Source: Mustelus asterias (taxonomy: Eukaryota). From it: DNA of 64,000 nucleotides. Of this stretch, positions 34,001 through 37,344 are shown piece by piece. Location of the stretch: NCBI RefSeq assembly GCF_964213995.1, contig NC_135810.1:24304001-24368000 (forward strand), read 5' to 3'. Within the stretch, counting starts at the first letter, position 1; each line of letters starts with the position of its first letter. Below the pieces are notes generated by a model. It saw only the letters and a program-made list of their open reading frames with translations, did not search any database and had not been told where the DNA came from. The position numbers and the translations under genes are program-made.

Positions 34001-36571
34001 GCCACTTAGCTGCACACCACCGACCTGTCCGAAAGTTTCAGGTTGCATCCCACCCCCACTGGCATTTAACCCATTGCTGGGGGGACAAGAAGGATGGGGG
34101 GCCATGTTATGCAGGCTCATGTTGGGTAAGGGATGAGGGGGAAACCTCCATCGAACTCACCTCCCAAAGGTCAGCCCCCCCACTTTAACCCTCTCCCCTT
34201 GGCCTTTTAACAGGCCCAACTCACCCATTCACTGTGACCCCTGACCTCACATTTACCAGGATGCATGGCATGGTGGGGCTGCAAGTAGTCCCAGGAGTGG
34301 CCGCTCTCCACTGGTACTGGGCCTTCAGCGATGCTAGCATGTCAGATTACCTGGCAGCTTTCTGAAGTGAGACTTCCTCCAGAGAGATCAGGGTTAAAAT
34401 CTCAACTTAAAGAAAGTAACACTGCTCCCAGCGTTAAATTGCTGTGGGTGCCCACCAAAATCATGGGCAATCTCCCCTGCAGATATTTTAACTCGGGGGC
34501 ATGAACTGCAGTAAAAAAACAGCCCTTTTTGCAAACTTTGTTGGATAATGGTCTTGCAATGTCTTAGGAAATTTTATGATGCTTCAGATGTTATATAAAT
34601 GCAGGCTGTTATTGTTTTGTATACACAGGAGGATGTTCCAAAAATCAGAGTAAAACCACTAACCAATGTGGAAAACGATGACAAATTCATTACTGTTTTC
34701 ATGAACAGGAAGTTAAATGAAGCTTAGTGGAATAAGTACATTCTGAATACAGCTTGTACTTGGTCTGTTCACTTACAGTGACGTAAAGCAGTTTCGCATT
34801 TGTATATGGTCCCATCTCTCAAACGTTTGATCAGTTCATCCTTTGATATTTGGAAAAGTACATATCTAAAAGATACAGGCCGACAGATGAGCAGGGAGGT
34901 GTAAAATTAGATTCGGTGATAAGGTAGTAAGGGTTGGAGCGGGGGGAGCGGATGGGGCGATTGGGGGGGGGGCTCCTCTGGAACTTTACCAGTGGTGAGG
35001 AAGTTATCGAGCAGCACTGCTGTGGGGTCAGCCTGGTGCTCCTGTTTGGGCAAGATGTGCCACATGGAAGGCCCGTCCAAGCATAAATCACTACCCCCCC
35101 TTAATTACCTAGCGCTACCCTCCTGATCTCCACCCCTTCGATAGAGCCTGCCTAGCTGGCCTCAGCAAGTCTTCCACACTTACCTGCATCTCCTTTTTTT
35201 ATCACTGCTCCTGGTCAGGAACCGGCTGCAGTTCCAGCAGTGTCCACTGCACACTTTTGACTGGACAGCAACTTCTGGAGTCAGGGTAACTTGCTTCATG
35301 TGCAGAAGCCACAACCTCAGGTTGCTTGGCAACCAAATATCATCCCGACCAACCCATCAAAACCTCGGAGTTACCACTGACCAGAAACTGACTTGGCCAG
35401 CTGTACAAATATATTAGCGACTTGAGCAGGTCAGATGCGAGGATTCTGTGGTGAGTAACTCACCTTCCTGACTCCCTGATTTTCAGAAAGCACTTGAGAA
35501 GGAGCCACATAAAAGAATTCAACAGAGGTTAGGGGTCATGGGATCCGAAGTAATATATTAGCTTGGAATTAGAATTGATTAACAGAGACAGAGAGTGAAA
35601 GGAAAAGAAGGACTTGCATTTATATCTGCTTTTCATGACCAATAAACATCTCACAGTGTTTTACAGCTCATAATGCATGTTTGAAGGTTTGTCACTGTTG
35701 TAATGTGGGAAACATGGCAACCAATAAGAGCACAGAAACTCCCATAAACAGAAATGTGATAATGAACACATTTTTAAAATGTTGAGTAAAGGAACATATT
35801 GGTCAAGACACAAGGGACAACTCCACTATTCTTCTTCAAAATCGTGCCATGGCGTATCTTAGACCCACATGAATGGGCAGATGGGGCAAGATTTCAATGC
35901 CTCACCTGAAAGGCAGCACCTCTGACAGTGCAGCAATCCCATAGTGTTTCCCTGGAATTTCCGCATAGACTTTTGTGATATGAACCCAGAAGTGAGGGCC
36001 CGATTTTACCAAACCTTCGGGGGCGAAGTCGCGGTAAAGTTGGGCGTCGGGCCTATACCGCGATCTGCACCCGATTCCGAGCAGATCGCGGCTTTCCCGA
36101 CACCCGATTCGGGCGTGGGTCCGGCCCTCGCCCGAATCAGGCGGCCCGATGATTTAAATGCATTAGCATGCATTTAAATCCACTTAATGAATCGCACGCC
36201 CAACCCTACCGCCAAATCCCACTTTACCGTCTTCTGGCCCATTCCGGATCCGGGCTTTTAGCAACCTGCAGAATAAAAGTCCGAAGTGGATTTCTATTCT
36301 GCAGGGGAACCTCCAAAGTCTTCTCTGCCCTTGTGAAGTCACCATCCTCCTCGACCATTCTTCACAGACCCGCCCCCCCCCCCCCCGCTAACCACCCCGG
36401 CGACGCCCCCCCTCCCCGGATCAGACCCCCCTGAGAGGCAGGCCCCCCCTGGCTGACACCCCCCCCCCCCCCCCCCGGGATCAGACCCCCCTGGGAGAGC
36501 ACACCCCCAACCTACCTCAATCGCTGGTCTCCATCCACCATTCTTCCGTTAGCAAGATAAACTGTATGTTC

Positions 36572-36697
36572 CTCAGTTAGATCCACTTTGGTCAACACAA
36601 AGATGGTCCTTCTGCCTTGTGGGTCCATCTGGCTCACCAAGTCAGTTACAATACTGTGTTCAGCATCTACTGAACCATCTTGGATACAAAGGATAAT
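36572..36697 (-). pseudogene. OPA1: OPA1 GTPase-domain cDNA fragment (inverted arm)
   Basis: [40 protein letters not shown], including the G4 motif TKVD. Confidence 0.95.
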
Positions 36698-36699
36698 CA

Positions 36700-36890
36700 A
36701 TGGTACTGGTCGATCTTCCTGGTGCTATCAGCACTGTAACATCAGGAATGGCTGCCGACACCAAGGATATAATTTTTAGCATAAGCAAGGCTTACATGCA
36801 GAACCCTAATGCCATTATCCTTTGTATCCAAGATGGTTCAGTAGATGCTGAACACAGTATTGTAACTGACTTGGTGAGCCAGATGGACCC
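36700..36890 (+). pseudogene. OPA1: OPA1 GTPase-domain cDNA fragment
   Basis: [64 protein letters not shown], including the G3 motif DLPG; no introns. Confidence 0.95.
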
Positions 36891-37125
36891 GTCACACCCC
36901 CTCTCCTCCTCCCACCGCTCCCCCCCCCCCCCCCCCCGCCTCCCCGACCCCAGAGGGTGATCTGGGTCCTGCCCCATCTCCTCTTCCCACCCCTCCCCCC
37001 AAGAGAGTGATCTGGGTCCCGCCCCCTCTCCTCCTCCCAACCCACCCCCCAGATGATCTGGGTCAGAGAGCCGCTCTCTCTGCTTTTTTCTCCCCGCCCG
37101 GGCGCGCTGCTTCGGATTTTTTTTC

Positions 37126-37183
37126 GAACTGCGCATGCGCAGTTCAGAGCTCCGATCGGTCCAGCAGCGCTAAGCCCCGCCCA
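37126..37183. promoter_or_regulatory. NRF1-type palindrome plus GC box in the H1 arm
   Basis: 20-bp palindrome gaactgcgcatgcgcagttc containing TGCGCATGCGCA; gccccgccca at 37174-37183; variants at ~10307 and ~42451. Confidence 0.45.
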
Positions 37184-37344
37184 CAGCGCGAATCGAACCG
37201 GAGCCGGCAAAAAGCATATGGGCGCGCTGGAAAGAGGATTCCAGGCTCGGATCTATTTGACGCCCAGATTCGGCACTTGGACTCAAAATGGTAAAATCAG
37301 GCACTGAGAGTGTTACCAACTGATCCAAAGCTGATACTAGGAAT

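Follow-up and report, generated by a model that had tools for sequence, protein, structure and literature searches.

The presence of OPA1 coding sequence inside a transposable element of Mustelus asterias raises two questions: how did a host gene come to be carried by a DNA element, and is the case a single accident or mobile cargo? The element occupies positions 35996-37304 of a stretch of 64,000 nucleotides (the window, to which all bare positions refer) of a 3.68-Gb genome. A sequence-only reading had described it as a Harbinger-type element, bounded by TIRs and a 3-bp TSD, that holds one fragment of spliced OPA1 cDNA.

The ends of the element are as described there. TIRs of 16 bp at 35996-36011 (+) and 37289-37304 (−), with 2 mismatches between them, are flanked by the target-site duplication TGA at 35993-35995 (+) and 37305-37307 (+). 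PIF/Harbinger elements have a 3-bp TSD and TIRs usually of 25-50 bp (PMC9179366); the TIRs observed here are shorter than this range and subterminal palindromes are found in addition. On the left side follow a subterminal arm with internal palindromes (36012-36365, +), which over its outer 290 bp resembles transposase-bearing Harbinger elements at about 70-80%, then a GC-rich minisatellite that varies from copy to copy (36366-36490, +) and a Harbinger-derived piece (36491-36548, −) that is 90-92% like a 3.65-kb transposase-bearing family. This piece is likely a remnant of the second (Myb-like) Harbinger gene. On the right side, a GC-rich minisatellite with a unit of about 50 bp (36891-37060, +) precedes the right subterminal arm (37061-37288, +).

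The cargo between these parts is an inverted duplication, i.e., antisense OPA1 joined to sense OPA1 around a 116-nt loop, and not a single fragment. It consists of three OPA1 pieces (codons numbered on the reference protein P0006): (i) antisense, 29 nt from about codons 795-804 (36547-36575, −); (ii) antisense, codons 425-468, IILCIQ..TKVDL (arm A, 36569-36697, −); (iii) sense, codons 387-450, VLVDLPG..QMDP (36698-36890, +). The first piece starts at the left cargo junction (36548|36549, with a 2-nt CG microhomology); it belongs to an exon about 330 codons further downstream than arm A, and is what remains of a long antisense arm after a deletion at a TGAG microhomology. The fold-back junction lies at 36697|36698. 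The sense piece comprises the loop (36698-36813, +; codons 387-424, across the VIS|TVT exon junction) and arm B (36814-36890, +; codons 425-450), whose end is a deletion that removed the remainder of a 1.7-kb cDNA. Both arms span the CIQ|DGS junction, and 36621-36697 of arm A pairs with arm B. The result is a perfect 77-bp inverted repeat around the 116-nt spacer (RNA fold z = −15). The earlier identification of OPA1 from DLPG to TKVD thus holds for identity (97% at the amino acid level to OPA1 of sharks and rays) and fails for continuity: the DLPG part is sense, the TKVD part antisense. The fold-back structure had been missed, as had the 4-kb progenitor and the second cargo family described below.

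Two further elements of the window had been presented as sister copies sharing the arms. Their minisatellite cores indeed lack the cargo; the arms are shared only in part, and both are distant relatives in reverse orientation. The element at 42292-43322 is 85-88% identical to the window element in both arms, and its minisatellite includes a small inverted arrangement around 42760-42950. The one at 10105-11075 has the TIRs in common and just 89 bp at 74%. The inner left-arm piece that abuts the cargo is missing from both, so neither is the empty parent. The window also contains SINE/LINE-like repeats with many copies, at 2880-3200, 14200-14560, 59840-60690 and elsewhere.

The parental gene was found at 37.26-37.35 Mb (G000:C3) and spans about 90 kb. 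OPA1 codons 255-384 match at this one genome locus only. The element crosses VIS|TVT (36732|36733) and CIQ|DGS (36832|36833) without an intron, and the host gene has GT-AG introns at both places, as the sequence-only reading had expected from the human gene. The long cargo of other copies (see below) matches 17 host exons at 92-100% and skips 16 GT-AG introns, these two included. The alignment with the species' own OPA1 thus establishes the mRNA origin that had been claimed. Element-specific sequence takes over from the cargo 10-13 nt beyond the stop codon. The bases after the cargo end have no match in the 281 kb downstream of host OPA1, and none of their 66 genome-wide matches lies at the OPA1 gene; a continuation of the cargo into a 3'UTR exon, absent from these 281 kb, was rejected. 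Among 40 long-cargo loci none extends upstream of codon 387 and none has a 3'UTR or an A-tail; likewise, no poly(A) was seen in any of the long copies inspected that keep the 3' junction. The cargo thus shares with processed pseudogenes the absence of introns, and lacks the 3'UTR, the poly(A) and a TSD of its own: the parent sequence that follows the left junction is missing at the right junction, in a comparison made with related rather than exact parent sequence. The cargo junction was absent from 4 sequence runs, in which some records were filtered, so that this absence says nothing on the date of capture or on expression. Run X2 gave an ordinary spliced OPA1 contig only, X14 and X19 short arm or flank pieces, and the raw DNA run X24 one read.

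The cargo is mobile. Searched with the 391-bp core, the genome yielded 923 candidates at first look; identity is 96-100% at each of the 40 places scored, and 30 of 30 fetched loci continue into element sequence. When the junctions were searched genome-wide with up to 2 mismatches (reversed controls gave 0 each), the fold-back centre was found in at least 468 places, the short-form deletion junction in 439 and the long-form 3' end in at least 41. Among 80 loci entered in the TSD test, both TIRs and the centre were present in 49 distinct elements: the 3-bp TSD is exact in 36 and has at most one mismatch in 45, and a 4-bp or 5-bp duplication occurs in none of the 49. The target flanks read A(C/G)AC-NNN-GT(G/C)T, i.e., a palindromic target preference. 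With at least 468 copies and varied 3-bp TSDs, the proposal of mobilised cargo, rather than of a one-off insertion, is borne out. Stacked or duplicated right ends (L042:5808-5998, L043:6129-6373, L046:5987-6240) suggest that family members insert side by side. One short OPA1-bearing copy, truncated at its left end, lies within an intron of OPA1 itself (L068:4840-6000, G000:C3:37295355), probably by chance; as a derived short form it was rejected as the source of the cargo.

A search with an OPA1 C-terminal profile gave 120 genome matches, many of them intron-less over all 345 positions. The long-cargo loci inspected (40 of 40, in two sets of 20) sit within the element arms and all fit one master of about 4 kb, in the order left arm, antisense OPA1 from codon 805 to 425, sense OPA1 from codon 387 to the stop, right arm. 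This long form has 1.7 kb of OPA1 cDNA with 16 exon junctions and arms of 1.14 kb; each long copy has its own deletions from the master. Nearly all of the copies examined have one and the same set of left, centre and right junctions. Two deletions separate the window copy from the 4-kb form, of which it is a derivative: one is that at the TGAG microhomology in the antisense arm, the other runs from codon 450 into the minisatellite. The short form with 77-bp arms makes up the majority of copies, their palindrome having been shortened by later deletions.

The assignment to Harbinger gains support from transposase-bearing relatives. A search for DDE_Tnp_4 gave 10,689 candidates in the genome, of which 150 were scored; such sequences are very abundant here, some with open frames above 400 aa. 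It should be noted that no Harbinger transposase was found in elephant shark and that other cartilaginous fish were proposed for checking (PMC9179366). Eleven of the scored loci were fetched at length; four are 5.7-kb elements in which the TIR recurs together with 3-bp duplications, and five are elements of 3.65 kb that share, at 90-92%, the 72 bp adjoining the left cargo junction. L147 and L150 match PF13359 (DDE_Tnp_4) with E of 7e-38 and 7e-41; L152-L155, at PF13359 matches, have the same TIR and 3-bp TSDs. For the Myb/SANT gene, one frame of six passed, in L154 (PF13873, E 6.4e-6, above the cut-off), and a second was weak. The OPA1 family thus has a 3-bp TSD and TIRs, and its relatives a DDE_Tnp_4 transposase and a Myb/SANT second gene, as expected of PIF/Harbinger. 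From the shared TIR, it would be mobilised in trans by related Harbinger elements that encode the transposase and the Myb protein; the arms are only 70-84% identical between the OPA1 family and the transposase-bearing elements seen, so the exact helper is not pinned down.

Uninterrupted parent sequence across the left junction occurs in 576 places of the genome. Of thirty that were fetched, 21 carry a different cargo (by alignment) and 1 more has the start of it; 6 are members of the 3.65-kb family and 2 fall in neither group. The exact empty parent was not found among these, right arms being mixed among subfamilies, and the right junction cannot for this reason be read against a parent.

The different cargo (cargo 2) defines a sister family with the same left arm and answers the call, made in the sequence-only reading, for a search for other cargo. 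It has 1,038 genome candidates, of which 40 were scored (94-100% identical), and is also palindromic, with arms of about 530 bp and a loop of less than 40 nt. Its loci (L159, L161-L190; e.g., L171:916-1969) include at least 2 different left-arm subfamilies. By eye it looks like an exon, a GT-AG intron and an exon with an open joined frame; a spliced form of these putative exons is absent from the genome. Pfam, homolog searches, phmmer (1.8 billion representatives), PDB, ESM Atlas and Rfam all returned blank, so that its host origin is unproven. Three loci (L042 at 3240-3840, L236 and L237) are chimeras in which OPA1 cargo forms one half and cargo 2 the other; in the first two, the join lies at or near the palindrome centres. 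As read from these chimeras, the two families have recombined.

The history of the OPA1 family after capture can be read from its long copies. Twenty of them, chosen for good or intact frames, differ from the column majority by a mean of 2.26%, with a pN/pS of 0.81 and 34 stop-creating changes; judged by these substitutions, the long copies decay neutrally. Compared with 11 outgroup proteins, 11 amino-acid changes are element-derived. L042 is host-like at 7 of these 11 sites and retains the fold-back junction; the fold-back thus predates most later mutations, which came stepwise. Where both arms are kept (12 long copies), 32 private variants recur in the two arms vs. about 2 expected (7,266 sites); L046 and L053 have a flipped loop, vs. 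64 of standard orientation. These two observations indicate arm-to-arm recombination. In L047 the arms (2324-2748 vs. 4749-5173) are 99.3% identical while the copy is 3.2% from the family majority, the signature of recent arm conversion within one copy. In short copies the arms are not homogenised (1 change in common vs. 1.19 expected in 43 copies, 8 others being dropped for indels). In L041-L060, the non-CpG variants present in at least 3 arm copies come from A or T in 37 of 47 cases vs. 222 of 421 for singletons (Fisher p 0.0006), for which GC-biased conversion between arms or error-prone gap repair is a possible cause. The A-biased derived changes were judged not to stem from RNA editing or from a single error-prone synthesis, given their 5' G contexts and stepwise accumulation.

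How the cDNA entered the element can be judged in part from the order of its pieces. Read from the right arm, the bottom strand runs without interruption through antisense OPA1 from codon 953 to 387, then sense OPA1 from 425 to 805, then the left arm; it thus reads as one synthesis that needs one mRNA. This continuity, the lack of poly(A) and of a cargo TSD, the replaced parent sequence and the existence of a second fold-back cargo together favour a single RNA-templated break repair with snap-back synthesis, followed by selfish amplification, an explanation that leads the others and to which we give about even weight. A break inside the ancestral element would have left a broken end near the right arm, which would have primed reverse transcription on OPA1 mRNA about 10-13 nt past the stop codon and not at the poly(A) tail. 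Synthesis would then have proceeded 1.7 kb back to codon 387; the new strand would have folded back over the 116-nt loop and served as its own template for 1.14 kb, as far as codon 805, before being joined again to the left arm through a 2-nt microhomology. The candidate enzyme is a LINE reverse transcriptase or a host polymerase. Dispersal with 3-bp TSDs, palindrome-shortening deletions, arm conversion in long copies and neutral decay, which the copies themselves show, followed. Against this reading count the microhomologies of only 1-2 nt and the length of 1.7 kb, which is long for reverse transcription by a host polymerase. Moreover, arm conversion erases the original differences between arms, so that shared mutations cannot separate snap-back from two-ended priming. 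RNA-templated break repair has been reported in human cells (PMC12065846, as far as its accessible text goes). Capture by RNA/cDNA gap repair or by retro-insertion had both been envisaged at the outset; break or gap repair is the one that probably fits better.

Capture at the DNA level is rather unlikely. An OPA1 processed pseudogene that already existed would here be copied in through a switch of template in gap repair or replication, and the fold-back would form on DNA; this would account for the lack of poly(A) and TSD. In the portion of PMC8277862 consulted, Pack-TIRs arise mainly by microhomology gap filling, and the exon-intron-exon look of cargo 2 would mean that the family can capture DNA. 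However, no arm-less OPA1 retrocopy was seen among the 40 loci inspected of those behind the 120 profile matches, codons 255-384 match the host gene only, and the arm of L042 is near the host state.

An unlikely explanation is LINE-driven, target-primed retro-insertion with twin priming, the 3'UTR, poly(A) and TSD being deleted before amplification. Twin priming yields abutting parts; the two OPA1 parts have 1.14 kb in common. Wherever the 3' junction is kept, the cargo ends at most about 13 nt from the stop, and the parent sequence is replaced, not duplicated. These features weigh against it in spite of the antisense-then-sense geometry, which is that of a 5' inversion, and of the LINE-like ORFs common in the fetched loci. 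As to frequency, 5' inversions make up 29.5% of somatic L1 insertions (PMC10191854, available in part).

A host function of an OPA1 hairpin RNA or of a truncated OPA1 protein, made from the transcript of the family, is an improbable cause of its spread or retention. The perfect stem of 77 bp (short form) or 1.14 kb (long form), the arm conversion that keeps long stems paired and an in-frame ATG that opens the sense arm would suit such a role; the pN/pS and stop-creating changes given above, in copies chosen for intact frames, the loss of most of the stem in most copies and the unhomogenised arms of short copies speak against it. Finally, an assembly artefact or chimeric read, to which palindromes and poly-C tracts are prone, is practically excluded: the 468 places differ in their flanks, private mutations and TSDs. 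The worry about an unspanned structure is set aside by these hundreds of independent insertions.

Among known systems, Pack-MULEs and Pack-CACTA of plants are non-autonomous TIR elements that amplify gene fragments, like the OPA1 family; unlike it, they usually keep introns (DNA capture). Pack-TIRs of animals are described by Tan et al. (2021, PMC8277862), in the part of that survey available, as four multicopy cases in reference genomes, one example having three copies; most cases are hAT or TcMariner, and intron-less captures were excluded as retroduplicates. The OPA1 family resembles them as a TIR transposon with host sequence, short breakpoint microhomology and multiple copies with distinct TSDs. 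It has host cargo between its arms, a parental locus and amplification by transposition; its cargo, with 16 introns absent, is not DNA-derived. Relative to the Pack-TIRs described in that part, it differs by being Harbinger-type, by its spliced cDNA, by its at least 468 copies and by its fold-back cargo. Turmoil-1 of C. elegans (Sela et al. 2008, PMC2572040, in the sections seen) is also a Harbinger element with host coding fragments present twice and inverted. Its fragments, of 131-205 bp, are located in the long terminal repeats, its piece of rsp-2 retains the intron and it has nine copies, whereas the OPA1 family has an internal palindrome, spliced cDNA up to 1.7 kb and a vertebrate host. 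The bat Helitron retrogenes (Thomas et al. 2014, PMC4224331) are likewise cDNA amplified by a vertebrate DNA transposon; these are rolling-circle elements, with four nested cases (118 copies in total) that have poly(A) and TSD, and the accessible text describes no fold-back such as that of the OPA1 family. Like L1 5' inversion by twin priming, as outlined in part of PMC10191854, the OPA1 cargo joins an antisense segment head-to-head with sense cDNA; unlike it, the segments overlap by 1.14 kb, without poly(A) or TSD. No earlier report of an OPA1-bearing family was found in the literature searched (without subscription journals, supplements and Repbase/Dfam entries).

More speculatively, and with considerable doubt, this Harbinger lineage may repeatedly capture host sequence as fold-back palindromes (OPA1 mRNA, cargo 2), broken ends priming on cellular nucleic acid and snapping back. 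The palindromes, being fragile, might lead to new captures and cargo swaps; with a promoter of their own, the copies, in their hundreds, might act as OPA1 hairpin-RNA loci and could adjust in trans a gene central to mitochondrial fusion.

In practical terms, about 500 pseudo-fragments in this genome confound the annotation of OPA1 and the mapping of reads. In vertebrates, TIR transposons rarely capture genes in multicopy form; the main survey filtered out RNA-derived cargo, and capture of a spliced mRNA of this kind is rarely reported for cut-and-paste elements in this group. The family is a germline record of a spliced mRNA in a cut-and-paste element without the hallmarks of retroposition, its junctions readable in hundreds of copies. 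It makes testable (i) germline RNA-templated repair with snap-back; (ii) arm conversion and decay of mobile palindromes; (iii) small RNAs against OPA1.
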